From: a virus
Lineage: Duplodnaviria > Caudoviricetes
DNA length: 53,134 bases
IMG/VR virus record: IMGVR_UViG_3300045825_000032
Coordinates: 1-53,134 of that record
Direction: 5' to 3' (one strand)
Position numbers and translations under genes: made by a program. Below the pieces are notes generated by a model. It ran no database searches. It was not told where the DNA came from and saw only the letters and a list, made by a program, of their open reading frames with translations. Below, piece by piece: positions 10,093 to 28,716 of the stretch; position 1 is the stretch's first letter; each line of letters opens with the position of its first letter.

Positions 10093-10812
10093 TTAATTGT
10101 CCGAGAAGTCTGGAAATTGCCATATGTCATTTTCCTTGTGGAAGATATATAAGCATTGACCATTCATAAGCATTTCTTCATCATTAGAATAAGCATCACG
10201 AACAGCTTCAAACATTTCCTGCTCTGTAGTCAGGCCGTCCAAGATTCGAGTTGCTTTGACTTTACCAATTCCAGAAACACCCTTGAGGCCATCTGTTGCA
10301 TCTCCGATAAGGAGTTGGTAGTAGAAAAATCTAAGTCCATCTTCGGCTGTGACACTAGCAAACTCTGCTGGTTTTGTCCAACGATTTTTACCCACAACGC
10401 CCCCTGATATTTCCCAACTGTAATGATTACCGGGGATTTGCCGAAGGTCTTTGTCCAAAGAGCAAATAACTGTGTTACGAATATCCCCACATTGGCTAAT
10501 TCCAAGAAGGTCATCTGCTTCACATCCGTCAGAACGTACCGCGTTATATTGTTGCTCAAGATAGTCTTTACATTGTGTAAGGTACTGAGGTCGGTCCATA
10601 GTAAGCCGATTGGCTTTATACTCTGGAAAGACTTGATACCTAAAATTATTCTCTCCTGAGAGAGCTACATACATTTCGCTGGCATGTGTGGCTAATAGAA
10701 TATCATCTATCAAACGCTCCATATAATAACGAGCGATTTCAAAGGTTTCTAGATTAGCAGCAGCGGCACACCTGTATGCAATAATATCCCCATCTATTAG
10801 GGCTTTAATCAT
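10093..10812 (-). CDS. 5'-3' exonuclease (T7 gp6/T5 D15-like)
   Basis: LIDGD, YKANR, EADD, SLDKD and GD.TDG..GV.GIG motifs. Confidence 0.92.
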   Translation of the reverse strand: MIKALIDGDIIAYRCAAAANLETFEIARYYMERLIDDILLATHASEMYVALSGENNFRYQVFPEYKANRLTMDRPQYLTQCKDYLEQQYNAVRSDGCEADDLLGISQCGDIRNTVICSLDKDLRQIPGNHYSWEISGGVVGKNRWTKPAEFASVTAEDGLRFFYYQLLIGDATDGLKGVSGIGKVKATRILDGLTTEQEMFEAVRDAYSNDEEMLMNGQCLYIFHKENDIWQFPDFSDN

Positions 10813-11065
10813 AACTTATAACGGACCCCCTTGACCTATGTGGGTACTCTCGGTACTCCATAAAACATCGGTAAACTCCATTCTTTTTAGCTATCCATGC
10901 TTCTTGTTTTACTGTATCCCTACAGTTTTCATGCCATTCCATGTGTTCATTAACATCCTTGGTGAGAGCAACCCCCATCCAAAATCCGGCTGTTCCAAAG
11001 GAAGCAGAACAAAGGATAAGGGTTAGTATATACAAGAAGTCCTGAACCTTACTCTTTAGGCTCAA
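10805..11065 (-). CDS. Hypothetical membrane protein
   Basis: N-terminal hydrophobic helix and operon position. Confidence 0.55.
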   Translation of the reverse strand: MSLKSKVQDFLYILTLILCSASFGTAGFWMGVALTKDVNEHMEWHENCRDTVKQEAWIAKKNGVYRCFMEYREYPHRSRGSVISYD

Positions 11066-11516
11066 GTACCCAGTCCGTGAACTGTTGAGCTACCTCGATT
11101 ACAGTATTAACATCAAGATGCTCAATGTCAGACCGCAATTTAATGTACTCGATAGCATTACTGATACTGGACTGTTTAATGATATACACTTGTTTACGAG
11201 CACGTTCTTCTGGAGTCTCATAGTTACTACCAGTGACTCGTGTAGTGCCTGTAGTTGAGGCAGGAGCACCTGTAGGAGCACTACCATCACTAATAGAGGC
11301 CCATTCATTGTAACCTTGGGCATTCTTGGTCAACTGAACGTCAACTTCTTGTCCTGCCAAAGTTTGTACTTGTTTATAGATGCTAGGATTAGCAAAATCC
11401 ATAATGTTCTGAGTACGGGGTTCACCATTATAGGTGTAAGCTACAATAGCTTTATTGTAACCCTTTGTACCTTTTTTAACGAACTCGTTATTAACACTGT
11501 TAATTGTAATTTTCAA
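11049..11516 (-). CDS. Putative single-stranded DNA-binding protein (TTG start)
   Basis: Beta-rich N-terminal half. It lies between the polymerase and the exonuclease and has its own strong promoter. Function is inferred. Confidence 0.4.
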   Translation of the reverse strand: MKITINSVNNEFVKKGTKGYNKAIVAYTYNGEPRTQNIMDFANPSIYKQVQTLAGQEVDVQLTKNAQGYNEWASISDGSAPTGAPASTTGTTRVTGSNYETPEERARKQVYIIKQSSISNAIEYIKLRSDIEHLDVNTVIEVAQQFTDWVLEPKE

Positions 11517-12235
11517 AGTTTAATTTCCTTCATTTCTAGTTTGTTCATCCCATACTGCACTTCGCAGGACAGGGGTAGTTTAAATTCATAGTCGAAGACT
11601 TGTTTACATAGTTTTGGTACATCTTCGATTGCTTGTTTTAAAAGCATACTAATATTATACACGTTTTTCTCTGGTGTGTCAAGTACTATCGAGTCATGGA
11701 TGGTAGAAATCATTAGAGCTTCCATACCAGACTCACGTAGTAGCTTTCTAGCTTGTAAACGTGCAAGCATAACCAAGTCTGCACCGAATCCCTGAACTGG
11801 ATAGTTTTTAATAATTGTCAGGGGCCACGGCTCAGTCTTGTTGTAGTCAGGGGTTATGGGATAGTGTCTCCCACTTGGGATAGTAAGCTTCCCTTCTTTT
11901 TGGGCGGTACGGAGGAGTTCTCCGTGCCATCGCTGGATTCCTTTATATTTAGAGTAATACTCGTCAATAATGCCTTGCCAGAACTGGACAGACTTAGATA
12001 CGTCTTGAAAGTCTGCATCGTTTGCATAAGAGTATGCGCTTCCACCGTAGATAAGTCTGAACTTAAAGATTTTAGCAATAAGTCTTCCTTGTTTCCCTTC
12101 ACCGAGTTTAAATCTATCACGATTTGCTTCATGTATATCTACCTTGTCAATAATTTCTTGGCACAGAACTTCATCCCCGGATAGCTCTGCGGCTACAACG
12201 ACCTCTAGCCCTTTTACGTCAGCGTTAATTAGTAT
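11513..12235 (-). CDS. Family A DNA polymerase, C-terminal catalytic part (probable ATA start)
   Basis: The frame is open upstream of the track ORF and contains motif A (NADVKGLE), motif B (RLIAKIFKFRLIYG), NYPVQG and motif C (HDS). An in-frame TAG lies at 12248-12250. Confidence 0.88.
   Translation of the reverse strand: MLINADVKGLEVVVAAELSGDEVLCQEIIDKVDIHEANRDRFKLGEGKQGRLIAKIFKFRLIYGGSAYSYANDADFQDVSKSVQFWQGIIDEYYSKYKGIQRWHGELLRTAQKEGKLTIPSGRHYPITPDYNKTEPWPLTIIKNYPVQGFGADLVMLARLQARKLLRESGMEALMISTIHDSIVLDTPEKNVYNISMLLKQAIEDVPKLCKQVFDYEFKLPLSCEVQYGMNKLEMKEIKL
11654..11682 (-). promoter_or_regulatory. Sigma70 promoter inside the polymerase CDS
   Basis: Exact TTGACA-N17-TATAAT. Confidence 0.85.
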
Positions 12236-12413
12236 TATTGTACTCCTCTATAAAACATTCTGCTTCCGCATCTGAATCATTTTCTTGAAGAATATATAAT
12301 TCCATTATCCAAAGTTTATTTATAGTATCAAGATATTTCTCTGCCGGGTTAGCTTTATACCATTCTATATCTTGAAATTCTTTTTTCCATCTAAATGAAA
12401 CAAATTTAGTCAT
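12225..12413 (-). CDS. Small hypothetical protein between the polymerase halves
   Basis: AT-rich 62-aa ORF overlapping both halves. Confidence 0.6.
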   Translation of the reverse strand: MTKFVSFRWKKEFQDIEWYKANPAEKYLDTINKLWIMELYILQENDSDAEAECFIEEYNNTN

Positions 12414-13590
12414 ATCTTGAGATTAAAAGTTGGTCAACTTGATTTCCAAAGTTCTGCATATTGGGATTACTACTGGATAATCGACCAGTTCTAGCCACTA
12501 CCTGATTATACTGTCCATGTAGAAACTCACCCCATCCCATCTTGTCTAGGAGTTCAGGAAGCTTCCCAAAATAAGTATCCATCAGTTTAGCTAACTCTGC
12601 TCGTTCCAATAGCAACTCAATAATCCGTCTATGTTCCTTTGTGGGTTTCTTTAATTGTTTTAGTACCCCTTCATTAGTTTCATAGATAGTAATTTCCTGA
12701 ATACTTCCGTCTGGTAAAGCCAGCTTCTTTTTAAGTTTTGTTTCAGTTTTAGGGAGAGGTCTGAACCTCCACCCACATTCATAGATAACAATGTTATGTC
12801 GAACCCGTGTATAAACTTCTCCCTTACGTGGGCCGCTTTTGTAGACTGTCTCTTCTTCTGTGGGTTCATCAATATCTATTTTCCCGCCATATAACAGACA
12901 GCTAAGATGTTGACCGCTGTCGAGATTAATAGCAGGAGTAGGGGAATGCGTGAGAAGCTCCTCTGTAATCGTCTGTAATTTCTTTGCCGTTTCGTTAGCT
13001 TTAACATTACATAACTCCTTATCAAATTTAATTCCATTCCATTCAATCTCTGCAAGAACCAACAAATCTAATCCCATAATCAGACAGAGTTTCTTCTGTT
13101 TCTCTGTCATTACCTCTTGCTGTTTGAGATAGAGTTTGTAGGTAAGGTCTACATCGAGGTCATTGTAGAACTGCAATTCAGTTACAGGAATGTCTGGAGT
13201 ATCTATCCCAAGGGACCAATACTCGGCAATTTTATCATCTTTGGAACCTAGTTCATACTTCGCAAGGCACTCATTAAGACTAGGATAAGTGCTCGTTTGA
13301 CCGGAGATAATGAACTCCGCCAGTTGGCAATCCCAGATGCGAGTTTTATCAGGTGGTACTATCCCATGCCTGCGAACCCATGTCAGGTCAAATTTAAGAT
13401 TAAATCCTACTACCAGACTTGCTGACTGCATTTCGAGACGTAGCTCATGCAGGAAGTCCGGGGCATCATAATAGTTAAATGATGGTGGATTATCATCTAT
13501 CTTCACTGAATAGGACACCAACTTGTTACTCGCCGTAAACGGGTGTCCTTTCAGATGTGTGGTTGTCTCTACGTCAAATGTTAATACAAT
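12406..13590 (-). CDS. Family A DNA polymerase, N-terminal 3'-5' exonuclease/thumb part (probable ATT start)
   Basis: ExoI (FDVET) lies upstream of the track start, followed by GFNLKFD, YNDLD and RTGRLSSSNPNMQN. AGGAGG lies 7 nt before the ATT at 13590. Confidence 0.88.
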   Translation of the reverse strand: MVLTFDVETTTHLKGHPFTASNKLVSYSVKIDDNPPSFNYYDAPDFLHELRLEMQSASLVVGFNLKFDLTWVRRHGIVPPDKTRIWDCQLAEFIISGQTSTYPSLNECLAKYELGSKDDKIAEYWSLGIDTPDIPVTELQFYNDLDVDLTYKLYLKQQEVMTEKQKKLCLIMGLDLLVLAEIEWNGIKFDKELCNVKANETAKKLQTITEELLTHSPTPAINLDSGQHLSCLLYGGKIDIDEPTEEETVYKSGPRKGEVYTRVRHNIVIYECGWRFRPLPKTETKLKKKLALPDGSIQEITIYETNEGVLKQLKKPTKEHRRIIELLLERAELAKLMDTYFGKLPELLDKMGWGEFLHGQYNQVVARTGRLSSSNPNMQNFGNQVDQLLISRYD

Positions 13591-13601
13591 ATTAAAACCT
13601 C

Positions 13602-13700
13602 CTATTCACTTTTAATAAGTTTACATTTTCTGCATTGGTATCTATTCATACCATAACCAGCAGACCCAACATATTCCCAATCATGTTTGCATTCAATCAT
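13602..13700 (-). CDS. 32-aa zinc-finger-like peptide (not in the ORF track)
   Basis: MIECKHDWEY...YQCRKCKLIKSE (CxH...CxxC), overlapping the helicase stop. Confidence 0.6.
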   Translation of the reverse strand: MIECKHDWEYVGSAGYGMNRYQCRKCKLIKSE

Positions 13701-14946
13701 AATTTTCAATGTCCTTAAAACGTGCAATCTCCGGTTCAATCAACACTTGCATACGAGCATGGCGCATATGAGGGATAGTATCTTCATCTCCTAACAATTT
13801 GTTCTTTGAAATGTTAAGGTAGCGAATATACTCTGCACCCTCTGCATGGGTATTACCCATACCTAGAATCCAATCTGCCTCTGCTTGTTTACTGGTCTTT
13901 GCATTAGCTACGTTATCCATAGTAAGCCACTTCTGGCCCTCCGCAGTACCGTCAGCCTGACATACACCAATAACCGGACAATATCGTTTAGCTAGTTCCC
14001 TAGCCCAGATATAGATTGCTCCTAGCCGTAGGTCTTCCCGGTCAGCATCAAAGCCCTTAATCTTGTCAATCTGGTCAAAGACAACAAGACTAGGGTTTAG
14101 TTGCTTACAAATAGCTTCGACTTTGGACCGACCTATTAACGCGTCGTCAACAAGCCGGAATGAATCAGTTGGAAATCCATGTTTGTACCTTTCAGTTGAA
14201 CCCAACAATTGTTCAAGTCGTACTCCGTGGAACCCTTGATGTACACGAAGCATGACCTCAGCACCAACCTGCTCGTTGTTGAACCATATAATCGGGCCAC
14301 GAGTATCAGGTAAATGTTGAAGCATATATGAAACTTCCGATGCAAGGAAAGTAGTTTTTCCTGACTCTGGTCTTGCGAAAAGAAATCCGAAGTTTCCTTT
14401 TCTAAGGCTTCCAAGGCTTTTGTTAAGGCAATCAAGTCTCCATCTAAGTCCTTTATCCTGATATACTTCGTGTAGAAGCTTCTCCAAATCCCCCGAAACA
14501 AACTCGAAATCTTCCGTCGTTTCTGGATTGTCATTGTTTAATTCCTCCAATAGTTCATTAACAGGTGTTAATTCCCCGGACCCAGTACTGAACTTAAAGG
14601 CTGCCTCAGACAGTTTTAAAGCCGTTTTACGGCGTTTAATCTGCTTAAGGATACCTACCCCTAGGGTGGGGTCTATTTGTGTCTCTGAGAGCGTTTTAAA
14701 TAGCTCCAGATAGATTCCTTTATCCACATCAGGGTATGCTGTGAAGAAAGCAGCCTGTAGGTCGTCTAAACTGAAGTCCTGTATGTAATCCCTATGCAGG
14801 GATTGTAACACCTTGTAAACATAATATAGTTCTTTATACTCATCCCTGATATGTTGCAGGTCAATAGAGTCAAAGTAGCTATCGTAGAACTCCCGTCTTA
14901 GTAGGAGTGTGATTAAGTCCCGTTCAGGGACGTATATAGTATTCAT
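13693..14946 (-). CDS. DnaB-like (SF4) replicative helicase
   Basis: Walker A ARPESGKT, VVFDQ, CQA and AEAD motifs. Confidence 0.9.
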   Translation of the reverse strand: MNTIYVPERDLITLLLRREFYDSYFDSIDLQHIRDEYKELYYVYKVLQSLHRDYIQDFSLDDLQAAFFTAYPDVDKGIYLELFKTLSETQIDPTLGVGILKQIKRRKTALKLSEAAFKFSTGSGELTPVNELLEELNNDNPETTEDFEFVSGDLEKLLHEVYQDKGLRWRLDCLNKSLGSLRKGNFGFLFARPESGKTTFLASEVSYMLQHLPDTRGPIIWFNNEQVGAEVMLRVHQGFHGVRLEQLLGSTERYKHGFPTDSFRLVDDALIGRSKVEAICKQLNPSLVVFDQIDKIKGFDADREDLRLGAIYIWARELAKRYCPVIGVCQADGTAEGQKWLTMDNVANAKTSKQAEADWILGMGNTHAEGAEYIRYLNISKNKLLGDEDTIPHMRHARMQVLIEPEIARFKDIENYD

Positions 14947-14995
14947 GTATTAATATATTATATTAATAATATATATTATTATATATTATATATAA

Positions 14996-15024: not shown

Positions 15025-15060
15025 GTACTGTTACAAATGTTACTTAGCCTGGGGTGATGG

Positions 15061-16108: not shown

Positions 16109-16830
16109 GTTAAATACTCCTTAATTTGTTGAACACTATATTCCTTTGGGTCTTTCTCTGTTCTTATCCATCGGACAGGATGTTTAAGAAACGTCTGTAA
16201 ACGTGCAACTTTTGCTGGTAATAGTGTATATTGGTCGTCATCCAACCATAAAGTCACAGGTCTTTTTTCCTTAATTAACAGTGTTAATGCTAGGTCATGT
16301 ATATGTGTCCCAAACAGACATAATGCTTGAGTAACCTGACCTACCTTGTGAGCAGAAATCAGGTCCTCAACCAGCACGATGGGAAGGTCGGTCCTTGTTC
16401 CAATTAATTCTACATACTTGTGCCCATCACCCCAGAATCTCCACTTTCTTTTTTCTTTCGTCTTGTCCATTTCAAGGGACCTGCCGATGGAGAACCTGAT
16501 GGGGTTTCCAAAGGTGAGTACAAGCCTGTTGTGGGCTGGAGAATAGCCGGTGTAGGGCTTCCAGTAGGAGTAGGGGAGTCCATACTGGAGGAGCCACTTC
16601 CATCCCTCTGGGGGAATTTCTCTGGTGAAGTCACTAGGTAACACAGCTTTTTCATCATCTGGTATCCTTTCTTTAAGTTTGAAACGAGAGGAATGAGGAG
16701 GTAGTCGATGAAACCCACAACTAAAACAGTGAGAAGAACCATCATTATAAATAGCAAGATTATCTCCAGACCTATCCCGCCCATTAGCAATACATCTTGG
16801 ACATTCATCATATTTTAGAAACTTTGCCAT
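16105..16830 (-). CDS. DNA primase (zinc ribbon plus TOPRIM)
   Basis: CPRC...HCFSCG, LVEDLIS and WLDDD motifs. Confidence 0.85.
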   Translation of the reverse strand: MAKFLKYDECPRCIANGRDRSGDNLAIYNDGSSHCFSCGFHRLPPHSSRFKLKERIPDDEKAVLPSDFTREIPPEGWKWLLQYGLPYSYWKPYTGYSPAHNRLVLTFGNPIRFSIGRSLEMDKTKEKRKWRFWGDGHKYVELIGTRTDLPIVLVEDLISAHKVGQVTQALCLFGTHIHDLALTLLIKEKRPVTLWLDDDQYTLLPAKVARLQTFLKHPVRWIRTEKDPKEYSVQQIKEYLT

Positions 16831-18167: not shown

Positions 18168-19497
18168 CTAAAACTCCTTTATTAGCGTTAGGACCGACCG
18201 GTGTTTCTAGGTCTTGTTGTGAGAGGGTAATTGCAGATGTTGAACAAAGAACAAAGCCACTGGGTTCTGTGCCCTTCCATGTTGAAGGCCACATATTCTT
18301 TTGCCATGATTTGTTTTTAACAACACAATCAAATATACACCCAGTAGTAGCATACTCAATACACTCCTCCTCTTTAATTTTATCAGGGGCATATCTATGA
18401 CGAAGAACAACAGAAGGTTCATCTAGTGCCATAAGCCAAAGAAACATTCCATCCTTATCATCCACACCATTAATACAGGTAGCATCATAGGCATATGCCT
18501 CTACTGAGCAATCAGCAGGGATAACAGAGGTAATCTTTTCCCATTCAGTAACTGTACAATGTACCGCTTGTTTAGCACATTCCAGCATTTCTGTGGAGGT
18601 AAGAGCATTATCCCCAAATCCAACTACTAGGTTCATTGCTCTGTCTGCACAAGCATCCCGCCCTACATATCCTCCACGGGGACTATCATTCTGGTATGGG
18701 TGTCTATTCCACTTCCGTTCCTCATAGTCTTCCAAATCATATCCACAAGCATCAGGATAATATCCTGTAGTAATAGGAGCTACATATTTTGGTTTGATTT
18801 CAATTTTTGTATTAGTAACTCTCCATGATTTATCTACCAACTTATAGGAGCATTGAAGAAGCTCTGCTAGTTGAAAGGGTTTCTGTTTCCATACTAGATT
18901 CATCCGGTCCCCTACAAAATTCAACATAGCCAACTCAGAGGACCAAATCCATTCAGTATCTGTAGTCCCTACCCATAGAGGGCGTTGAGAATTCCGTAAG
19001 AAATTCACAGTTTCCTCCTCAAAGTTATACCAAATCAAGGCAAAGGCTCCATTAATAGTGTTAATGGCTACCTCTACCCCCTCTTTAGCAATCAAGTGGG
19101 CTATGGCATGACTATCCACATCAACATCAGCGTGTTGTTTATGGTCCCCCCATAGTGTACCATTATGGACAAGACAAATCTTATCATCCACTAGGAAAGG
19201 ATGGGCATTCTCATCAATGATATTACCCTTAGTGGCCTTTCGATTATGCCCAATGAGAGCACTACCATTAAGAATAGATAGCCGCATCAACTCATCATAA
19301 TCCTTATGACTCATGAACTCTTGTGCAGTACTTGCCTCCTTACTCAACCGAAGGGACCCATCGTTGGATACCAAGAAACTACCAGTGGAATCATCCCCCC
19401 TAAGGGTATCAACAAACAAAAGGGTTGAAAAGATTTCCTTCTGTCGTTGGGTAAATCCATTGGTATATTTACTAATAACTCCTACAAGTCCACACAT
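18157..19497 (-). CDS. Class II (Ntn) glutamine amidotransferase
   Basis: MCGLVG, RG.DSTG, GHNR.AT, NAHPF, HNG and DS motifs. Confidence 0.9.
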   Translation of the reverse strand: MCGLVGVISKYTNGFTQRQKEIFSTLLFVDTLRGDDSTGSFLVSNDGSLRLSKEASTAQEFMSHKDYDELMRLSILNGSALIGHNRKATKGNIIDENAHPFLVDDKICLVHNGTLWGDHKQHADVDVDSHAIAHLIAKEGVEVAINTINGAFALIWYNFEEETVNFLRNSQRPLWVGTTDTEWIWSSELAMLNFVGDRMNLVWKQKPFQLAELLQCSYKLVDKSWRVTNTKIEIKPKYVAPITTGYYPDACGYDLEDYEERKWNRHPYQNDSPRGGYVGRDACADRAMNLVVGFGDNALTSTEMLECAKQAVHCTVTEWEKITSVIPADCSVEAYAYDATCINGVDDKDGMFLWLMALDEPSVVLRHRYAPDKIKEEECIEYATTGCIFDCVVKNKSWQKNMWPSTWKGTEPSGFVLCSTSAITLSQQDLETPVGPNANKGVLVVH

Positions 19498-19498: not shown

Positions 19499-20701
19499 TT
19501 ATGTATTCCTTTCTATTTCATATTCATTTAATTCTCTAATTGCTGCTGTATATTGAGCATCTGCCGCCTGTATTTCCGCTATATTACCCGCCAACATTCT
19601 CCGAGTCTGATGCTCCCTTGCTAGTAATTCCCTTTGATTCATGGGCCTTGGAGCTGGAGGGATAACATACTCTGTTCCAGTATGGCCTGTTAGTTCCGTT
19701 CCGTCTATGCGTCTAGCCGCTGTATCCCAACGCACAGCATTGTATTGTGTTCCTGCCGCAACACCTAGATTATGTAGACCTCCCTCCCTTAACCCCAGTA
19801 TTGCTTCTTCTTTAGAGATAGCTTTCTTTTTAGGAGGAACCACTACTTCCCGTTTATCTGGGTCAAATCCTACCAATGAGTACTTAGCTTGAATAACTCC
19901 ATCCTGTAGAGCGAGGCGATACTTATCATTGTAAGGAAGGAACCCATTAAAGACAGAATCAAAATACCGATTGTATTGAGAGCTATCATTCAATGTTGTA
20001 ATATCAGTAAAGATTTCATCAAAGGAAGATGATTTAGCCTTATACAGCAGGTGGCTAATAATATTCAACCATGTAGTAATCTTTGCTATATCCGCCGTAC
20101 CGTGCATATGTCGAAACTCTACTGTCCCCTGCTTAAGAATTGGTAGAAGATTCAATGCGGTATATTTTTGCCAGCGTTTTAATGTATCTGTTCCCTCTGT
20201 ATACAGCCCATTAATAAGTTTGTGATTCATTAGACATTGGGACCAAGGAATACAGTAGAGATTGGTGTCTCGATGCCCTCCTACAAACTCAAACAGAACC
20301 TGCTCAATAGTCTGGTAGCACAGAGCAAGACTAGATAACTGGTCCACAGTCATATCCACAACATTAGCATGAACATGGATACTACAGCGGTCAGTGAAAT
20401 TAGTCTCTGTGAATCCAGTCTGAGTGTAGAAGTAGTTAACACTGTTAATAAGACTTATAGCATTCATGGGCTTGGAGATAAACTCAAAGGCCCTACCACG
20501 AAGGGAAGAGTCATTAGTCACCAACCATTGATGAGCATCCAATGCAGCATGGTATGAATCAGCTCCATGACGACAATTTTCTACCTCAATCTCCATACCA
20601 AGAATCTGAGCTTGGTGAGGAATCTCTGGAGTCTTGCTGGTATATGTCAGAGGCATCTTGATGCCATAGATACTACCGATATTCGGTTCAGGTTTTTTCA
20701 T
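19499..20701 (-). CDS. Putative amidoligase (glutamine synthetase-like COOH-NH2 ligase)
   Basis: GMEIEVE, DSSL, EFIS, SIHVH, KY.ALN and TVEFR motifs. Confidence 0.8.
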   Translation of the reverse strand: MKKPEPNIGSIYGIKMPLTYTSKTPEIPHQAQILGMEIEVENCRHGADSYHAALDAHQWLVTNDSSLRGRAFEFISKPMNAISLINSVNYFYTQTGFTETNFTDRCSIHVHANVVDMTVDQLSSLALCYQTIEQVLFEFVGGHRDTNLYCIPWSQCLMNHKLINGLYTEGTDTLKRWQKYTALNLLPILKQGTVEFRHMHGTADIAKITTWLNIISHLLYKAKSSSFDEIFTDITTLNDSSQYNRYFDSVFNGFLPYNDKYRLALQDGVIQAKYSLVGFDPDKREVVVPPKKKAISKEEAILGLREGGLHNLGVAAGTQYNAVRWDTAARRIDGTELTGHTGTEYVIPPAPRPMNQRELLAREHQTRRMLAGNIAEIQAADAQYTAAIRELNEYEIERNT

Positions 20702-21308
20702 ATTGATGAATCTCCATAGTTTGTTCACAATTACGAAGGGCATCTTTAATTTCAGTAAGGAACATATTCCCAGATTTATTTAATTCGATTCGTCCAAGGT
20801 GCTGAAGGACCGACCCAACAATCTCCTTAAATACACAGATACCAAAGGGTGTTATTGCAATACTAGGTGAGATTGCATAGCAATTAAATTTTCCTACTGT
20901 TTCCTTAAAAGGAAGAGCCTTCTCATACACAGGTAAGAGACTAGAAAAATCAATATGCACAGGATTAAATCCTCTCTCTGTTACTTTATATGCACGCATA
21001 TTAGCAGAACATACTCCTCGTTTAAATTGACGACTGGCGTGGCGTTCCATAAAAAACAACCCGTCAGAAGTATTGTAGAAAGCAGAGGCCGGAGGAAGGA
21101 ACTCAAATCCAATCTCTCGTGCAATATCAGCATTTACCTGATACTTAGTTCCCTTTTTATCGGAAAAGCTCACAGTTTTTTCCTCTTGGTCAATATGCTC
21201 CAAGAGAGCAAGGAACTTACGAGTTCCATCCACAGTATAGAAACCAAAGGTTCCTTCATAGCGCTGACGGAAATCAGCAGATGTTGCTGAGAAGAATTTC
21301 TCAAACAT
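20688..21308 (-). CDS. Hypothetical protein within the ligase cluster
   Basis: GGAGG precedes the ATG at 21308. Confidence 0.65.
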   Translation of the reverse strand: MFEKFFSATSADFRQRYEGTFGFYTVDGTRKFLALLEHIDQEEKTVSFSDKKGTKYQVNADIAREIGFEFLPPASAFYNTSDGLFFMERHASRQFKRGVCSANMRAYKVTERGFNPVHIDFSSLLPVYEKALPFKETVGKFNCYAISPSIAITPFGICVFKEIVGSVLQHLGRIELNKSGNMFLTEIKDALRNCEQTMEIHQYEKT

Positions 21309-22089
21309 GGATAACCTCCAATCCAAATTTAGATACCATTTCTTGAGCCAATCGTTTATCATTATTGTTAATTGTGTTGACGATGCTATCTCGATATTCA
21401 TCGAAAGGAAACTGTGCTTCCACAGCAGAGATTGCTCGTTCTGTATTTCTCCATACCCATTCAATCAAACGATCGTCAAAAATCCAGAAGTTTGACAGAG
21501 TACGATACTCAAGGCCATAAGGCTTATACCGGACTGCTCCAGCTTTACCATACAACAGCTTGCGTTTGTCGCCTTTGTCCATTAGGACCGACCCAATTCC
21601 TAGGTGCATATCCATAGCCTTACCTAATTGGTCTGCATTAACAGTGTTAACATCCTCCAAACCAATATGAATGTGTCCCCCACAAGAGCGAAGAGTTTTA
21701 TCTTCTGCCTCTGGTCGAGGATTCTTCTTACCCGTCCAAACATTGTAATCAGGGTCACAGCCAAAATTCAAGGCCGCATCCGATTGCAATTCAGATTCAG
21801 GGAAAGAAGCAGCACTCTCATTAATAATCTGGAAACCATAACGGTTTTTGATTACTCCAGAGAGGAAATCCAAGGTGGATTTAATATGACTAACATATTC
21901 TTCTGCACCAGATGCAGGAGGAATATTGAATTCCATAGCCACATTATCTTCCTGAACAGCAAATCCCTTCCCAAGTGGAAGGTCCAGAGGAAATGCCTTA
22001 CTACCACCAATCAAACCCACAGAAGATTTGAGATTACCCTGCAAATCCGCCATGAATACTTCTGGGTCACAGCCAAGTTTAAATTTCAT
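21301..22089 (-). CDS. phiEco32-like COOH-NH2 ligase type 2
   Basis: LGCDPEVF, QEDNV, FGCDPD, GGHIH and EYRTLSNFW motifs. Confidence 0.88.
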   Translation of the reverse strand: MKFKLGCDPEVFMADLQGNLKSSVGLIGGSKAFPLDLPLGKGFAVQEDNVAMEFNIPPASGAEEYVSHIKSTLDFLSGVIKNRYGFQIINESAASFPESELQSDAALNFGCDPDYNVWTGKKNPRPEAEDKTLRSCGGHIHIGLEDVNTVNADQLGKAMDMHLGIGSVLMDKGDKRKLLYGKAGAVRYKPYGLEYRTLSNFWIFDDRLIEWVWRNTERAISAVEAQFPFDEYRDSIVNTINNNDKRLAQEMVSKFGLEVIHV

Positions 22090-22751: not shown

Positions 22752-23389
22752 AGGCGTTCCTTCATAGTTTCAAACACATACTGAGTAGCCTCAGTCCGTC
22801 CATCCATCATTTCAGGATGCCATTGGATAGCGAATCCTTTTACATCTTTGAAATAGACATACTCAGGTTCGTGCCAATCAGGACTTGGAGGAGTCCATAC
22901 TTGGTCGTCTTTATAAATATAATGAGAACTCAAGTTATTGGGTAGCCAAGCCAATAGCTCGTGGTTTGTCTTCTCCAATCCTGCCATCATTTGATGGTGA
23001 ATAGAGTTTGTGCTGAAGGACCGACCATTAACAGTGTTAACTGTGTGTCGCCCACCATGACCGCGTACATCTTGGATAAGATAACCACCAGCCAAGGCAC
23101 ATAACATTTGAGCACCACGACAGATACCAATGATAGGAATACCCATCTCTTTAGCACGTTGCATCAAGTCCCACTCAGCATGGTCCCGTGTAGGATAAGG
23201 ATAAGTAGACTTGGATTGGGGATGCTTATAGGTCCACGTACCAATGTCTGACCCACCCCATACTACCAACATGGAATCCTTTTCCTTCAAATCCTCTGGC
23301 AATCGTGCTGTAACAACAATCTTAACCAGAGCATCAAAGGGATGGGCATCCCCACCACTAAGCGCACTATATAGAATTTTTGCAATCAT
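22730..23389 (-). CDS. Class I glutamine amidotransferase / peptidase C26 (PuuD-like)
   Basis: GG.DI, GICRGAQ, NSIHHQ and QWHPE motifs. Confidence 0.9.
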   Translation of the reverse strand: MIAKILYSALSGGDAHPFDALVKIVVTARLPEDLKEKDSMLVVWGGSDIGTWTYKHPQSKSTYPYPTRDHAEWDLMQRAKEMGIPIIGICRGAQMLCALAGGYLIQDVRGHGGRHTVNTVNGRSFSTNSIHHQMMAGLEKTNHELLAWLPNNLSSHYIYKDDQVWTPPSPDWHEPEYVYFKDVKGFAIQWHPEMMDGRTEATQYVFETMKERLCQTAKQ

Positions 23390-23679
23390 ACAGGCAAGAT
23401 TCCTTCCTTAGAAATTTCTTTCAATGTCATTTCCCCTGCTGGGCGAATACCAGAACGATATGGTTTATAGGCTACCACTTCCATCCCCGGATTCCATTCT
23501 GTTAACAGTGTTAATGCACCATCAACAAACTTTTCATCCACTTCATACAGACGAGGAGTACCCCCATCATCAAAACCAACCTTATCTGTTGTAATGTAAT
23601 GACAATGCCGGTCAAGTCCCTCCAAATAGGTTTCCGCCCTATTGTTAGGAGTGTTAATCAGAATCAATACTTTAGCCAT
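23386..23679 (-). CDS. Hypothetical protein
   Basis: AGGAG RBS followed by ATG. Confidence 0.65.
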   Translation of the reverse strand: MAKVLILINTPNNRAETYLEGLDRHCHYITTDKVGFDDGGTPRLYEVDEKFVDGALTLLTEWNPGMEVVAYKPYRSGIRPAGEMTLKEISKEGILPV

Positions 23680-23680
23680 T

Positions 23681-24386: not shown

Positions 24387-24399
24387 CCCCACTACCTTA

Positions 24400-24588
24400 C
24401 TAACAAACGACTTGTAGGGTTTCCGTAGTTCTTGTGTAATCATAGTTATTAACAGTGTTAATGAAAGCGTCTTCCCCGCTGGAGATATTACGCAGTTGAT
24501 GGGGTGCAGGACCGACCTTCTGTGGACCCTTTGGCATTTCGTGACACCAATCGCAATCCTGCATAATACAATGTTCACAGTGTTTCAT
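24400..24588 (-). CDS. Small Cys-rich protein
   Basis: CxxC...CxxC with an ATGA overlap. Confidence 0.5.
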   Translation of the reverse strand: MKHCEHCIMQDCDWCHEMPKGPQKVGPAPHQLRNISSGEDAFINTVNNYDYTRTTETLQVVC

Positions 24589-25162: not shown

Positions 25163-25171
25163 GATTAATCC

Positions 25172-25543
25172 TTACTTAATAAAGTTTTTCAATTCCAGCA
25201 ACAGCCATACTTTTGGAGCAAACCAAACAAGTAGCATATTGTTTAGATTATAGAGAATGAAAGGAACTCCGCATACTAAAGTGATTCCCCCCCCAAAGAG
25301 GGTAGCAGCACCACGGTCCACAGAATCTTTTATCTGTTTGACACTGCGGGAAGTTAGAATAAATCCAGCAACCAAGATAAAAATACCAACCAAAACCCAG
25401 AGGATTGTGGCTACCCTACCAAAAGCAAGGTACTGTAAGGCAATATCAGGTAATTGTTCAAGAATAAATGTTCCTGTTGTTTGAATACTACTTTGAATTG
25501 CATTGAGAATAGCTACCAGTTTGTTTTGTAAAGTTTCATTCAT
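25172..25543 (-). CDS. Membrane protein
   Basis: Two to three hydrophobic helices and an AGGAG RBS. Confidence 0.65.
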   Translation of the reverse strand: MNETLQNKLVAILNAIQSSIQTTGTFILEQLPDIALQYLAFGRVATILWVLVGIFILVAGFILTSRSVKQIKDSVDRGAATLFGGGITLVCGVPFILYNLNNMLLVWFAPKVWLLLELKNFIK

Positions 25544-25569
25544 TTCATTACTCCTATTAACAGTGTTAA

Positions 25570-26055
25570 TTAATCGTCTGAGGAACTAGAACTATCGCTA
25601 GAACTAGAATCAGACCCGCTATCCCAAGACCCAGAGGAACCACCACCAGCACCATCGCCACCACCACCAGATTGAAATGATGGTGTATCATCCGGTGGCG
25701 TGTAGGACCGACCTTCTGAATGATGATGTAGTACTTCATCCACTAATGCACCCACTACCATACCAGTAACAAAATCATTATTAGATGATTGTACTGGTAC
25801 AGGAGTTGGTTCTGGTACATAGGGTCTGGGTCTAGACACCACCCTACGGGGCTTGTCTTGGGCTTTATCTGGGGCCAGTGTGGGCTTATATGGAGTCAAT
25901 CTCCGCACTTGCTTAACACCCCCAAGTTTTGTGGGCAATGGCAATGGAATGTTCTTTTTCTTTTCTTCCTCAATACATCGCATAGTCTCACGATGTTTAA
26001 GGTAGATACCACACCCCACGCAGAGCAATAGAAACAACACAATCAATTCAAACAT
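25570..26055 (-). CDS. Membrane-anchored protein with a Ser/Gly/Asp-rich tail
   Basis: N-terminal TM helix, Pro-rich linker and low-complexity tail. Confidence 0.65.
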   Translation of the reverse strand: MFELIVLFLLLCVGCGIYLKHRETMRCIEEEKKKNIPLPLPTKLGGVKQVRRLTPYKPTLAPDKAQDKPRRVVSRPRPYVPEPTPVPVQSSNNDFVTGMVVGALVDEVLHHHSEGRSYTPPDDTPSFQSGGGGDGAGGGSSGSWDSGSDSSSSDSSSSSDD

Positions 26056-26056
26056 T

Positions 26057-26416
26057 TCAAACTCCTTTCTTAATTAACTGAACATCTTTCAACACACCAG
26101 TCTCACCATCAAAGATGGCCTTGATGTTTGGACCAGCCCCCGTAGGGTATGCACCACCGAGGTGGAGATAAAGAGTCTGAACAACATCAGGCTTTGGCTC
26201 AGGCTTGATACGATAGGTTTCTGAAATATTCCAAGTTGGACTATTCCTAACAACATCTCTCCAATCTCCACCAGAACACTGGTACTGAATCTTAGCACCA
26301 TCAGCCCATGCTTTAATCAATTCAGCATGAACATGGGGAGGATTGGGATAACCCTCTTTGCATCCCACATCATGCCTCTTTGCTTGGTCGCCGGTGAGTT
26401 GAATACATTTACACAT
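26057..26416 (-). CDS. Hypothetical phage protein
   Basis: HAELIKAWADGAKIQ...YRIKP pattern and an RBS. Confidence 0.65.
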   Translation of the reverse strand: MCKCIQLTGDQAKRHDVGCKEGYPNPPHVHAELIKAWADGAKIQYQCSGGDWRDVVRNSPTWNISETYRIKPEPKPDVVQTLYLHLGGAYPTGAGPNIKAIFDGETGVLKDVQLIKKGV

Positions 26417-26600
26417 GATTAACTCCTTTAATTAACACTGTTAACTGCTTTGCCATAGCTTGAGTCGATGGTCGGTCCTTACTTCCATGTGCCGGTCGAA
26501 TGTTACCGGAATGAATCAATACCTCACGAATAGCATTATCGGTACGACTGGGCAATGGTTTTTTGCCCGCATGACGATTGTTCAGATAGAAATGTTTCAT
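26409..26600 (-). CDS. Small basic early protein
   Basis: AGGAG RBS followed by ATG. Confidence 0.55.
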   Translation of the reverse strand: MKHFYLNNRHAGKKPLPSRTDNAIREVLIHSGNIRPAHGSKDRPSTQAMAKQLTVLIKGVNHV

Positions 26601-26758
26601 AATACAACTCCTTGTTTAAGTTTAAAATCCTCAACAGCACACTCAAGATAGATACGACGAGGGAATATTGAGGCAGCTCCAATAGTATTGTAGCCCTTCT
26701 CATATATTCTAACTCGTTTACTCAAGTAAGAAAATGGAATATGAATAGAATCACTCAT
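26597..26758 (-). CDS. Small early protein (53 aa, not in the ORF track)
   Basis: MSDSIHIPF...KQGVVL, coupled to neighbours on both sides. Confidence 0.5.
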   Translation of the reverse strand: MSDSIHIPFSYLSKRVRIYEKGYNTIGAASIFPRRIYLECAVEDFKLKQGVVL

Positions 26759-27041
26759 GCTCTTCTTCCTCTTCTTCAGTTACTTCCGTGTCAAACTCAC
26801 CTCGTATTAGTCCTGCAGTATACTCCCGATGTAGAACTTGCCAAAAGATTGCCCCTTGTGGGGTAGAACTAAAGGACATAGAATCAGACAAATCTCTCGC
26901 ATCCAAATCCAGATTGTTTGGATTCCTCTTATCATAGAGTACCCTTTTTAAAGCTGTAAACAATTGAGCTTTAGAGATACTGGTTATGTGTGGTGACACA
27001 TTCCGAAACAACCTTGATTCCACAATACTAGGTTTCTTCAT
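26751..27041 (-). CDS. Early protein with an acidic tail
   Basis: GGAG RBS and F..TPQG..FW pattern. Confidence 0.6.
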   Translation of the reverse strand: MKKPSIVESRLFRNVSPHITSISKAQLFTALKRVLYDKRNPNNLDLDARDLSDSMSFSSTPQGAIFWQVLHREYTAGLIRGEFDTEVTEEEEEEHE

Positions 27042-27066
27042 GTTAATTCTCCATTAACAGTGTTAA

Positions 27067-27267
27067 TTAAAACCAGAAGGCCATTGGAGAACGAAGACAT
27101 AGTGGTAAATCCCAGTATCTTTTTGGACATTGAAGATGAAAACCACCAGCACCCACACCCCAATTAATAGGGATAAATCCCCATTTATAGAAAGTCCATT
27201 GCCCCCTATCTTGTCCTTCAATCACCAATGTATCCCAATTGGAGAAGCAGTATTTAATCTTGTTCAT
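27067..27267 (-). CDS. Small early protein
   Basis: AAGGA RBS followed by ATG. Confidence 0.5.
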   Translation of the reverse strand: MNKIKYCFSNWDTLVIEGQDRGQWTFYKWGFIPINWGVGAGGFHLQCPKRYWDLPLCLRSPMAFWF

Positions 27268-27279
27268 GATGGTCGGTCC

Positions 27280-27390
27280 TTATTTCATCCAAATAATCTT
27301 CACACGCTTGGAAGAACCTTTGATTTCCTTCGCAACACGATAGGTAGAAACACAGCCAATCTCACGGGAACCACGGAAAATGTGATACAT
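27280..27390 (-). CDS. 36-aa early peptide (not in the ORF track)
   Basis: MYHIFRGSREIG...KIIWMK preceded by AGGTG. Confidence 0.45.
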   Translation of the reverse strand: MYHIFRGSREIGCVSTYRVAKEIKGSSKRVKIIWMK

Positions 27391-27477
27391 ATTAACACCT
27401 GTTAATTAAGTTAAACAAAATAGAATACATCGGAATGATGCACCCCAATATGCCTACATAATAGGCATATGGTGATG

Positions 27478-27594
27478 TTATCGCCCGTACAAACGATTAA
27501 AGAATCCATCTTTAGTTTTCTGTGGCACACAGCAAAACGATGGGTAATCCTCATGATAGAGGGTTAATAAAGCCTGATATTGTGCATCACTCAT
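27478..27594 (-). CDS. 38-aa early peptide (not in the ORF track)
   Basis: MSDAQYQALL...RLYGR preceded by AGGGGA. Confidence 0.45.
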   Translation of the reverse strand: MSDAQYQALLTLYHEDYPSFCCVPQKTKDGFFNRLYGR

Positions 27595-27644
27595 GTTATC
27601 CCCTTTAAGATTTTCATATCATACCTTTCATTTAATTAACAGGG

Positions 27645-27761
27645 TTAACGGGCCAGCGCATAAGGTCGGTCCTTATTTACCCAACTATACAACTTGGGGT
27701 TAGCCTCCATCATGGCGCAACGTACAGCATACCGCCATAGATTTATTTGCCCGATAGTCAT
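27645..27761 (-). CDS. 38-aa early peptide (not in the ORF track)
   Basis: MTIGQINLWRY...KDRPYALAR preceded by GGAGG. Confidence 0.5.
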   Translation of the reverse strand: MTIGQINLWRYAVRCAMMEANPKLYSWVNKDRPYALAR

Positions 27762-27788
27762 GGGATAACCTCCAAAAAGTATAGACGT

Positions 27789-27814
27789 AAAAAAGCCCGC
27801 ACTAGGCGGGCTTT
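27789..27814 (-). terminator. Intrinsic terminator after the first early gene
   Basis: AAAGCCCGC-N5-GCGGGCTTTTTT on the minus strand. Confidence 0.85.
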
Positions 27815-27849
27815 GTGTTAACAGTGTTAACTGTTAAGTTAGTGTGCGC

Positions 27850-28446
27850 TTACTTGCTTTCAATCAGGGCTGTAAGCCACAATGCGAGCTTTTCTTTGTC
27901 CTGCATCGGCAAGGTTTCAATCAGTGCCTTTGCTTTGTCAATGCCTGATGTGGCCTTGCGTCCTACTTTTTTAGTAGGGCTCACCGCGCTGGGGTTTTCC
28001 ACCGAGCCTGTATGCGCTTTGCTTTGCAGGGTTTCGGTGGCCTTCAAGCTAATGATAGCCCAAGCTTGCGTATGGTCAGGTTTAAACCCGGCCTCAATGG
28101 CAGAGGACATTTTCAGCCACAGCGACACAGTGACAGATACAGAATTGACTTTGGGGTCATTCCCGCGGTATGCGCTAATGGTCAACCCGATTGCTTCAGC
28201 GGCCATACGATAGGCGTCCATGCGATCGGCCAGTTCTTTCCTGAATTCTAGGTGGTCCTCCCGCGTGAATTTTTCCAAGCGCAGTACAGTATCCTTACGG
28301 GTTTCGGCCTGCTTAACTTCAGCTTCGGCCTGATTGTCTGCCAGTTTCAGGATAAGCAGACCCAGCGCATGGCCTGCAACGCCCTTGGCGGAGGGTTTCG
28401 CTGAACCTTTTGTTTTTCCGGCAGGTTTCATAGTGGTTAAGTCCAT
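27850..28446 (-). CDS. First early gene, function unknown
   Basis: GGAG precedes the ATG at 28446. Codon usage is GC-richer and the gene has its own terminator. Confidence 0.7.
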   Translation of the reverse strand: MDLTTMKPAGKTKGSAKPSAKGVAGHALGLLILKLADNQAEAEVKQAETRKDTVLRLEKFTREDHLEFRKELADRMDAYRMAAEAIGLTISAYRGNDPKVNSVSVTVSLWLKMSSAIEAGFKPDHTQAWAIISLKATETLQSKAHTGSVENPSAVSPTKKVGRKATSGIDKAKALIETLPMQDKEKLALWLTALIESK

Positions 28447-28716
28447 TTTAAATACTCCATTAAAGCAAAGGGCTATTTGATACAAGGTAAGCCCAATAAA
28501 CCTGTTAACAGTATTAATTGACTAATTCAAAAAACACTTACTAACAGGGAGATTGTGCCATAGGTAAATGTAACGTGCGTGTAACAAAGGTAACAATGTG
28601 TAACGCTATTCGGGCATTATTCATGACCTAATTACATCACACTAACCTTACACGAACCTTACAACCCTACTGCCATTAGGGGTATTATTCTAGGGGTTTC
28701 CGCCCGTGTTTTTTGA

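Follow-up and report, generated by a model that had tools for sequence, protein, structure and literature searches.

Early arm of the phage genome and its repeated motifs

The window, that is, the whole stretch of 53,134 nt that we analysed, is record IMGVR_UViG_3300045825_000032 of an uncultured freshwater phage (G000 below). A sigma-70 promoter with a perfect consensus (12 of 12 positions, with TG; 29258..29286, minus strand) points into a minus-strand early arm, and by analogy with Pseudomonas phage tf, as far as the available text on that phage goes (PMC3517423), the physical genome ends may lie in this divergent promoter region. The first early ORF (27850..28446, minus strand) encodes an orphan helical protein of 198 aa and is followed on its 3' side by an intrinsic-terminator-like hairpin and T run (27789..27815, minus strand), which was read from the sequence and is missing from the output of the promoter/terminator scan. 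The fold of the protein is all-helical, without a PDB match; it belongs to no Pfam or PHROG family and has no homologue among 84 related sequences, and the suggestion in the earlier note that it might bind the motifs described below thus gains no support. Family scans covering part of the window's ORFs, namely 34 by Pfam (30 early-arm and 4 late-arm) and ten promoter-proximal early-arm ORFs by PHROGs, returned no HTH or other DNA-binding, repressor or integrase family. With no integrase or repressor family among the scanned ORFs, there is no sign of lysogeny.

Two short motifs, A and B, recur along the early arm. Motif B, GGACCGACC (reverse complement GGTCGGTCC), has 12 exact sites, all within 10589-27672 and hence all in the minus-strand early arm, where they become denser toward the promoter end. 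Allowing up to one mismatch gives 15 matches, whereas shuffled sequences average 4.94 and never exceed 11. The three matches with one mismatch, at 4219, 7894 and 38054, all fall outside the range covered by the exact sites, and one of them is in the early arm; no degenerate copies occur within the B-bearing part of that arm. The sites fall in all three reading frames, in both orientations and also in intergenic DNA.

Seven of the B sites read GGTCGGTCC on the early sense strand (minus). They are located within the DnaB-like helicase gene at residue ~272 (14125..14133), a position shared by B-like sites of 4 related loci; in the class-II glutamine amidotransferase gene, at its 3' end (18191..18199); within ORF 20688-21464 (20807..20815); within the COOH-NH2 ligase-like gene (21585..21593); in the class-I amidotransferase-like gene (23018..23026), with 1 nt between this copy and the A site at 23028, at a protein position where L140 and L147 also carry B-like sites; in the probable intergenic stretch 24386-24585 (24509..24517); and within ORF 25570-26055 (25705..25713). 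The remaining five are reversed, with GGTCGGTCC on the plus strand. Two of these are within the 5'-3' exonuclease gene (10589..10597) and the primase-like gene (16386..16394), and three are promoter-proximal: one separated by a 25-nt gap from the A site at 26432 (26470..26478), one overlapping the ribosome-binding region of ORF 27067-27267 (27271..27279) and one separated by a 15-nt gap from the A site at 27636 (27664..27672).

Motif A is the palindrome TTAACA-S-TGTTAA (TTAACASTGTTAA), present as 11 exact sites and 4 variants, 15 in all. With up to two mismatches it gives 31 strand-matches, compared with a shuffle mean of 2.38 and maximum of 7, and the pattern read backwards gives none in an exact scan. 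Like motif B, it is found nowhere but in the minus-strand early arm, with a density that rises toward the promoter end, and it occurs in two reading frames, at gene junctions and in intergenic DNA. Five exact sites lie inside genes: within the primase-like gene at residue ~185 (16275..16287), the amidoligase gene (20436..20448), the COOH-NH2 ligase-like gene (21638..21650), the class-I amidotransferase-like gene at residue ~117 (23028..23040) and ORF 23386-23679 (23502..23514). A sixth marks the SSB-like ORF at its 5' end (11491..11503). Two variants are also intragenic, one with a 2-nt centre in the helicase gene (14558..14571) and one with a single mismatch in the class-II amidotransferase gene (19052..19064).

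Of the other A sites, that at 24449..24461 occupies the probable intergenic stretch upstream of ORF 23943-24386/24443. That at 25557..25569 adjoins the stop of ORF 25570-26055 and precedes the ATG at 25543 by 13 nt, with the ribosome-binding site between; that at 26432..26444 immediately precedes AAAGGAG and lies 15 nt before the ATG at 26416; and that at 27054..27066 adjoins the stop of ORF 27067-27267 and lies 12 nt before the ATG at 27041. A one-mismatch copy (27636..27648) overlaps the stop of a 38-aa ORF (27645-27761). The first early ORF has A sites on both sides: an exact copy ~20 nt past its stop and directly before the hairpin-plus-T-run terminator (27818..27830), and a one-mismatch copy upstream (28505..28517). 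The coordinates given for both motifs in the earlier note all agree with the sequence, the gradient it described toward the early end is real for both A and B, and its view of them as DNA-level signals is borne out, since they occur between genes and, within genes, in several reading frames.

Motif families in related phages

In the related phages, motif B corresponds to a polar 9-mer with the family-wide consensus GGWCKRTCM, whose form changes by one or two bases from genome to genome. Across 80 helicase-oriented related loci (1.185 Mb), the consensus occurs 202 times forward, on the early sense strand, versus 22 times in reverse, while the same pattern read backwards, as a control, gives 54 and 29. 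In 20 of the 80 loci, a single variant is present at least three times. Forward and reverse counts of B-like sites over whole records are 12:0, 11:0, 8:0, 1:11 and 6:6, with nearly all sites in the early arm. In the Alcaligenes phage QDWS535, a cultured relative, all 11 GGTCGATCA sites are on the early sense strand; the close relative G007 has 3 and 5 exact GGTCGGTCA copies on its two strands and, like G000, carries inverted copies near the promoter.

B-like sites take little account of gene boundaries: 15 of 123 are outside ORFs (random rate 8.8%), the next start is a median of 343 nt away, versus 327 nt for random positions (n = 123), and only 2 of 31 are just 5' of a start. In different genomes, different B variants occupy the same protein positions, at residues 215, 229-232 and 269-272 of the helicase and 122-125 of amidotransferase-1. 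The one gene association found is with the amidoligase/amidotransferase cluster, which is present in 18 of 19 B-positive loci versus 6 of 18 B-negative loci, in counts that ignore phylogeny.

The A-like palindromes differ from genome to genome, being TCCTAA-YR-TTAGGA in QDWS535 (TCCTAAYRTTAGGA), TTACA-N3-5-TGTAA in G007 and TTAAC-N2-4-GTTAA in L142. Their half-sites are invariant and their centres variable, with a centre length of 2-4 nt within L142 and 3-5 nt within G007. In five genomes, 15 of 61 A-like sites are at most 30 nt 5' of a Shine-Dalgarno (SD) sequence and start, compared with 4.0 expected (p = 7e-6), and 46 of 61 are away from gene starts. Two coding A sites of G000 match palindrome positions of L142 (primase-like gene, residue ~185 versus ~183; class-I amidotransferase-like gene, ~117 versus ~120). 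The first early ORF is flanked by A sites, with a terminator alongside, in both G000 and QDWS535: the QDWS535 sites at 46871 and 47630 repeat the arrangement of the G000 sites at 27818 and 28505, respectively. At helicase residues 273-280, L142 and G007 each have a palindrome, beside the B-like position of other genomes. Analogous motif families recur in relatives despite turnover of the early genes, a point in favour of the reading in the earlier note.

The two families do not always occur together. Both are present in G000, QDWS535 and G007. L142 has 10 palindromes and no forward B-like sites, and L187 likewise has only the A-like family (5 palindromes). B-like sites without A-like ones are found, for example, in L147, L209 and L218, whose loci have 7-11 B-like sites but lack any palindrome family that reaches four copies, and in phage tf, which has its own nick motif, at coordinates that we checked on the tf sequence, and no palindrome family.

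Proximity of motifs A and B

The earlier note held that the two motifs track each other almost one to one and read them as a two-protein array. The distances from each B site to the nearest A site, centre to centre, are 12, 26, 36, 55, 58, 109, 146, 215, 369, 435, 863 and 904 nt, so that 5 of 12 B sites are less than 60 nt from an A site. When the density gradient is kept in the permutations, p is 0.004-0.015 for the full set of 15 A sites and 0.004-0.019 if A is limited to its 11 exact copies. The near one-to-one tracking thus holds only weakly: five of the ten pairs that had been put forward are 100-435 nt apart, no closer than chance, and two B sites (10589 and 18191) and five A sites are without a partner. 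The closeness is not reproduced in QDWS535, where 2 of 11 B sites are within 60 nt (p = 0.06-0.27), or in G007, where none of 8 is (p = 0.41-1.0).

An array of two proteins laid as an address code over the first-entering DNA would draw on this closeness in G000 (p 0.004-0.02), on the common arm and density gradient of A and B, and on the directly abutting junctions at 23018/23028 in G000 and at 45443/45454 in QDWS535. It appears improbable to us, because QDWS535 and G007 do not show the closeness, some relatives possess a single family, spacing (gaps of 1 to ~47 nt) and orientation (both B orientations occur) are not constant among the close pairs, and A and B sit differently relative to genes. 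The earlier observation of two paired motifs is thus partly confirmed, and its interpretation partly supported. The nominal closeness in G000 has no account in a reading that treats A and B as two separate families.

Interpretation and relation to known systems

We tentatively favour, with a confidence somewhat below even, the reading that A and B are two independent DNA-level families, a nick-type motif (B) and an operator-like palindrome (A), rather than one paired code, since pairing is seen in G000 only and single-family relatives exist. Motif B (GGTCGGTCC) is the local version of GGWCKRTCM, the polar 9-mer that many members of the Zobellviridae-like group of G000 carry in their early arms. 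This 9-mer is most likely recognised by a phage-encoded site-specific nicking system that would produce programmed single-strand interruptions in packaged DNA. Nicking is most likely at B sites on the strength of the motif signature that they share with tf-type phages, and the inverted promoter-proximal copies in G000 and G007 would then lead to nicks on both strands. Such an arrangement (7 sense and 5 antisense in G000, 3 and 5 in G007) runs against the one-strand rule of known nick motifs, and the lack of relation between the B sequence and the tf motif also counts against nicking. No cognate nickase is named in the available text of the nicked-phage literature (PMC3517423, PMC11780129).

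Motif A is most likely bound by a dimeric sequence-specific protein, phage- or host-encoded, and its likely role at the junctions of early genes is that of an operator or roadblock that modulates or shuts off early expression. The symmetry of the sites, the invariance of the half-sites and their placement 5' of ribosome-binding sites suggest this role, as does their position beside the first early gene and its terminator. The many A-like sites away from gene starts (46 of 61) and the lack of an HTH among the scanned ORFs count against it, and the variable length of the A-like centre is awkward for a rigid dimer. The palindrome at helicase residues 273-280 in L142 and G007 hints that both families could serve one function, which, if so, fits binding better than nicking.

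Binding without cleavage is an alternative for B, whose sites would then act in an orientation-dependent way on transcription, replication or DNA translocation, as roadblocks or loading sites, with parallels in the stoperators of mycobacteriophage L5 and in Tus-Ter. The strong polarity of B relative to early transcription, its restriction to the early arm with a gradient from the promoter end, and the palindromes near B-like positions in L142 and G007 are all consistent with such sites. We nevertheless regard this as unlikely, if worth keeping in view, given that nothing in the scanned ORFs points to lysogeny and that the signature of B is that of motifs experimentally nicked in phages with a syntenic early arm. 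B could also be a Chi-like host sequence that shields phage DNA against RecBCD/AddAB-type exonucleases during entry or replication, as its polar, exact, over-represented and gene-indifferent character, its highest density near the presumed leading end and its variation between phages with probably different hosts would permit; but this is very improbable, given that B is confined to one arm and that its variants have a core in common in many phages, as would rather be expected of a conserved phage factor. To our knowledge, B has no resemblance to known Chi sequences.

For motif A, a rather unlikely alternative is that it acts in the mRNA, as a short hairpin or protein-binding operator 5' of the SD sequence that controls early translation, in the manner of the T4 RegA or gp43 operators. 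The excess of sites just 5' of SD sequences and starts speaks for it, and a centre of variable length is easier to reconcile with a stem-loop than with a rigid dimer site on DNA; moreover, the right half of the QDWS535 palindrome overlaps the SD sequence of at least three genes (46231, 46747 and 45454), and its TTAGGA would itself be an SD sequence, sequestered by the left half. Yet a stem of 5-6 A-U-rich pairs around a centre of 1-4 nt would be very weak, by an estimate made without a fold calculation, the half-sites are invariant where an RNA helix would show covariation, and most A-like sites are not at starts, some lying upstream of the first gene or beside terminators. That A and B are functionless by-products of codon usage, protein repeats or recent duplication has a next to negligible probability. 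Several coding A sites do encode V/I-N-T/S-V/I-N, and 3 of the 5 reversed B sites in G000 encode D-R-P, but the same 9-mer and 13-mer turn up in more than one frame, in proteins that are unrelated and between genes, their flanks are unrepeated, relatives have analogous families of different sequence, and dinucleotide shuffles never attain the observed counts.

Returning to the two-family reading, the nearest counterparts of motif A are the L5 stoperators and the conserved inverted repeats of phiC31, in which a protein-binding site of 13-17 bp is dispersed in 10-30 copies along transcription units, often at gene junctions, and silences transcription. The phiC31 repeats are palindromic, and both types of phage are temperate, with sites that serve the lysogenic repressor. 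Motif A resembles these arrays in its 15 dispersed copies and, as in phiC31, its palindromic form. It differs in that the temperate and repressor-encoding character of the class, including an integrase, was not found in the G000 ORFs scanned, in that most A sites are inside genes and in that the A-like centre varies in length in some relatives. Chi is likewise a polar, exact, over-represented oligomer, defined by a host enzyme, genome-wide and indifferent to gene boundaries. Motif B is alike as a polar exact oligomer and unlike in being confined to one arm with a common core across many phages.

The available accounts of T5/BF23 and phiKMV-like phages describe nicks at a consensus site in one strand, of unsettled function, which in T5 extend over the whole genome in major and minor classes (PMC3517423, PMC10644984). 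The programmed one-strand interruptions of these phages compare with those proposed for B, while the phage groups and the consensus differ. Closer parallels come from phages tf and Rembedalsseter, whose interruptions at TACT/RTGMC and WACTRTGAC, respectively, were demonstrated experimentally (PMC3517423, PMC11780129). As described in the available text of these reports, the tf and Rembedalsseter motifs are 9-mers whose 13-14 copies are confined to a single strand; the early half contains 11 of 14 copies, the sites are spread through and outside coding sequences at similar positions in relatives, and the tf motif differs by one base from that of LUZ24/PaP3 (PMC3517423, PMC11780129). By these accounts, every known nicked phage has its nicks in one strand.

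Motif B departs from the tf type in its unrelated sequence, in a phage group known here from assembled sequence, and in the inverted promoter-proximal copies that place it on both strands in G000 and G007. Unlike tf, which has 2 copies in the late arm, G000 has essentially none there, and a second, palindromic family coexists with B. In other respects the correspondence is close. As in tf, LUZ24/PaP3 and Rembedalsseter, B is an asymmetric 9-mer with ~9-14 exact copies; in most genomes all its copies are on one strand, the early sense strand; it is concentrated in the early half, denser near its start and indifferent to gene boundaries; and its positions are similar in relatives whose consensus is off by one or two bases. 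The early arm itself is homologous and syntenic with that of tf, the two phages having 7 collinear early-arm proteins in common at 27-41% identity.

Two motif families on the early arm

The window, a complete virus record of IMG/VR, has a 127-bp terminal direct repeat (1-127 and 53008-53134), the basis of its IMG/VR class DTR, that falls within a 1347-aa ORF, indicating an assembler overlap of a circular map rather than a physical end. The minus-strand early arm (5780-28485) encodes a ribonucleotide reductase, an HD protein, a 5'-3' exonuclease, a split family-A DNA polymerase, a DnaB-like helicase, a primase-like protein, an ATP-grasp protein, a class-II amidotransferase and an amidoligase, with many small orphan ORFs at its promoter end. 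The plus-strand late arm runs from about 29.6 kb, with a divergent pair of promoters at 29286-29258 and 29375-29403, each a perfect sigma-70 consensus. Among named relatives, Alcaligenes phage QDWS535, two Manatee Spring phages and Methylophilales phage MEP402 are nearest, and Vibrio phage ICP2 (Zobellviridae) is farther away. No GenBank phage matched 20000-28500 in a search for near-identical DNA; seven DNA matches among public runs, with no RNA dataset among them, were obtained as contigs from wetland, pond and riverine metagenomes, and Rfam detected nothing except tRNA in the window.

About 770 nt between the early promoter and the first early ORF (28520-29290) contain no convincing ORF and could constitute an origin or leader region; its repeats comprise four GTAAC units ~10 nt apart (about 28570-28606) and a pair of AACCTTACA copies (about 28637-28660), and a palindromic (TA)-rich block lies at 29160-29270. 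Farther along the arm, the family-A DNA polymerase is split, its parts at 12406-13521 and 11513-11776 being separated by a pair of small orphan ORFs. Annotations of QDWS535, MW202796, MW202697 and MEP402 show this split too; in ICP2 the polymerase CDS is joined and contains an HNH gene. Near-perfect minus-strand sigma-70 promoters at 11654-11682, before an SSB-like ORF, and at 14996-15024, before the helicase gene, suggest internal middle promoters for host RNA polymerase.

Motif A, the palindrome TTAACA-S-TGTTAA, has 11 exact sites and four variants in the window, and allowing up to two mismatches raises the count to 31 strand-matches, where shuffles average 2.38. Motif B is the polar 9-mer GGACCGACC (reverse complement GGTCGGTCC). 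All 12 exact B sites lie within 10589-27672, and allowing up to one mismatch gives 15 matches against a shuffle mean of 4.94, with none of the three one-mismatch copies inside the exact-site span. Both motifs are found in intergenic DNA and in several frames of coding DNA, arguing for nucleic-acid-level signals rather than protein repeats; B codes for G-R-S three times, for G-S-V-L twice and for P-V-G-P, M-D-R-P and R-T-D-L, and in three places lies at or near the end of a small ORF.

The earlier note had proposed that A and B are paired along the early arm as a two-protein DNA address code. Measured centre to centre, the nearest A lies 12, 26, 36, 55, 58, 109, 146, 215, 369, 435, 863 or 904 nt from the respective B site. 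Against uniform placement and against nulls that keep the density gradient by jittering each B site locally by 750, 1500 or 2500 nt, this closeness is nominal (p = 0.004-0.015); five close pairs lend it support, whereas the other five pairs listed in that note are 100-435 nt apart. The closeness does not recur in QDWS535 or in G007, a complete 52-kb genome with 57% helicase identity to the window, each of which carries both families. Other genomes carry a single family: loci L142 and L187 have palindromes without B-like sites, and polar 9-mers with no accompanying palindrome family occur in loci L147, L209 and L218 and in Pseudomonas phage tf. The GenBank relatives MW202796, MW202697, MEP402 and ICP2 carry neither family.

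The single-family genomes and the lack of closeness elsewhere indicate that A and B are separable systems on a common arm. What stands of the original observation is the presence of both motifs above shuffle, with pairing nominal only; the paired code itself is not supported, and co-localised motif families should be replicated in relatives before being named a code. A and B may still have a common positional role, since in L142 and G007 a palindrome at helicase residues 273-280 lies beside the B-like cluster at residues 269-272. The first early ORF (27850-28446), which had been suggested as a binder, turns out to be a helical orphan protein lacking conservation among relatives: its predicted fold is all helical (mean pLDDT 75.2) with no PDB match at E 0.001 or better, and the positionally equivalent QDWS535 protein shows no similarity to it. 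Eight metagenomic homologues exist, and none of the loci encoding them was retrieved from viral or metagenome contigs.

Genome-specific palindromes and their placement

The palindromes are genome-specific, reading TTAACA-S-TGTTAA in the window and L187, TTAAC-N2-4-GTTAA in L142, TTACA-N3-5-TGTAA in G007 (20 sites, 17 of them in the early arm) and TCCTAA-YR-TTAGGA in QDWS535, where the 11 sites are dense toward the promoter end. The QDWS535 palindrome flanks the first early gene and adjoins the terminator of that gene, as A does in the window. A-like sites are enriched within 30 nt 5' of an SD and start (15 of 61 vs 4.0 expected, p = 7e-6; for B, 2 of 31), as exemplified in the window by the junction sites at 25557, 26432, 27054 and 27636, with two sites flanking the first early ORF. 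Sites in coding DNA coincide with L142 palindromes at primase residue 185 (183 in L142) and amidotransferase-1 residue 117 (120 in L142).

A 14-mer scan of IMG/VR, in which the matches listed were mostly single chance ones, led to two mutually related records, G001 (L128-L129) and G002 (L131-L133). In these records TTAACA-N1-2-TGTTAA occurs five to eight times; its AT-rich arms are longer, and the copies follow terminators and precede the terminase operon. These records have only distant structural genes in common with the window, and no B motif, helicase homologue or common early protein was found in them. A 15-mer scan of genome contigs yielded 120 scattered matches in unrelated taxa and pointed to no host. 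There are 17 copies of TTAACANTGTTAA in a Cloacimonadota MAG, three of them ~100 bp apart on one contig, and six in a Pedobacter genome (G011 and G010, via L275 and L252), compared with one each for the backwards control. Both were rejected as hosts, being too far from the proteobacterial relatives, and TTAACANTGTTAA is probably the operator of a cellular regulator there. Recurrence of the 13-mer in these two viral records and two bacterial genomes suggests a generic kind of operator, and the best reading of A is a palindrome family of operator-like character with a putative binder. The palindrome families offer a second, separable handle on early-arm control in these phages.

A strand-biased 9-mer family across relatives

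A helicase-anchored scan of IMG/VR confirmed at least 509 stretches encoding helicase relatives, from which 80 loci were kept. De novo k-mer counting recovered B-like 9-mers in many of them (GGTCTATCA, GGTCGGTCA, GGTCGATCA and GGACGATCA). Over the 80 loci, GGWCKRTCM occurs 202 times on the helicase strand vs 22 times on the opposite strand, the backwards control giving 54 and 29, and one variant reaches at least three copies in 20 loci. Whole-record forward:reverse counts are 12:0, 11:0, 8:0, 1:11 and 6:6, nearly all in the early arm; in QDWS535 all 11 copies of GGTCGATCA (27896-47879) are on the early sense strand.

B-family sites disregard genes: 15 of 123 are not fully inside an ORF, compared with a random rate of 8.8%, their relative position within ORFs is flat, and the next start lies a median 343 nt away (327 nt at random). 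Their spacing is marginally regular (CV 0.748 vs 0.868 simulated, p = 0.06). Depending on the genome, helicase residues 269-272 carry GGTCTATCA, GGACTATCA or GGTCGGTCC and residue 215 carries GGTCGGTCA or GGTCGATCA, and three B variants occupy amidotransferase-1 residues 122-125 among genomes.

Other readings of the motifs were considered. Reading B as primase sites or as a replication-polarity signal was rejected, given its absence from the late arm and a GC skew that makes no turn near 26 kb. A promoter reading of either motif was rejected, as there is no sigma-70 partner element at a fixed distance and A is too near to start codons. To our knowledge, none of the IHF, DnaA, CtrA, ArcA, matS and boxA motifs resembles A or B well enough. 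A literature search with the exact A and B strings found no paper, and a topic-level search found nothing specific to the phage family of the window.

Presence of B correlates with a gene cluster encoding amidoligase, class-II amidotransferase, ATP-grasp protein and COOH-NH2 ligase (17463-23389 in the window; loci L139-L218). Amidoligase and class-II amidotransferase genes are found in 18 of 19 B-positive vs six of 18 B-negative loci (Fisher p = 1e-4, kinship ignored). When the amidoligase alone was used to search for loci, nothing was found. A small HNH endonuclease is encoded at 30328-30663, directly upstream of the large terminase, and tblastn finds it in every GenBank relative compared except MW202796 (four of five); it is a conceivable candidate for site-specific cutting, yet it is also present in relatives without B.

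Inverted sites and comparison with proven nick motifs

Five of the 12 B sites in the window are inverted (10589, 16386, 26470, 27271 and 27664), the last three being the most promoter-proximal, and in G007, too, the inverted copies are four proximal sites plus one elsewhere. The GC skew of the window turns at the divergent and convergent junctions only and stays steady at the ~26 kb orientation switch, which is thus no replication-skew boundary. The reversed 9-mer reads Asp-Arg-Pro in the sense frame at three of five sites in the window (10589, 26470 and 27664) and at least three of five in G007 (20299, 30731 and 32241), which may show where proteins tolerate it.

A more elaborate scheme, which we regard as improbable, would apply to the lineage of these two genomes. 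With the three to five sites nearest the early promoter inverted relative to all the rest, programmed strand breaks or polar marks would be placed on both strands; if these are nicks, the promoter-proximal and distal parts of the early arm would be broken in opposite strands. One nick set would then lie in the template strand, where host RNA polymerase could stall until ligation, and the DNA itself would thereby time either transcription-driven genome entry or the early-to-middle switch. A second factor would find the same conserved positions labelled by the genome-specific palindromes, and the whole apparatus would be tied to the co-occurring amidoligase/amidotransferase cluster.

Programmed nicks have been known in T5 for some fifty years and were later found in phiKMV-like and LUZ24-like phages, their role being described as still unknown (PMC11780129). 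In Pseudomonas putida phage tf, ligase can repair 14 nicks, which all fall within TACT/RTGMC on the top strand, 11 of them in the left, early half; nick positions are reported to be similar in LUZ24, PaP3 and MR299-2, with the main site differing by one base, and the tf authors proposed co-evolution of nickase and site (PMC3517423). Nanopore sequencing of phage Rembedalsseter revealed 13 strand-specific breaks at WACTRTGAC, a motif reported as enriched on one strand in 60 relatives, with its sites concentrated toward one genome side and lying both in and outside coding sequences (PMC11780129).

In the tf record, the plus strand is the early sense strand and carries all 14 motif sites, 12 of them before 25.1 kb. 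The window and tf have seven collinear early-arm proteins in common at 27-41% identity, namely the COOH-NH2 ligase, amidoligase, class-II amidotransferase, ATP-grasp protein, primase zinc-binding part, 5'-3' exonuclease and tf_47 homologue; relatives of tf also carry the amidoligase/amidotransferase cluster. From these likenesses we infer that B sites may be nicked. If GGWCKRTCM sites are nicked, the phenomenon would reach a large group of podoviruses from freshwater and the sea, most of them uncultured (20 of the 80 loci carry the motif), the amidoligase/amidotransferase co-occurrence would be a candidate genetic correlate, cultured QDWS535 would be a direct test case, and a natural variant with sites on both strands would be at hand. 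The B family matches the proven tf-type nick motif in its sequence-level properties, on a homologous arm, and is best read as a new form of the known nick-associated motif systems.
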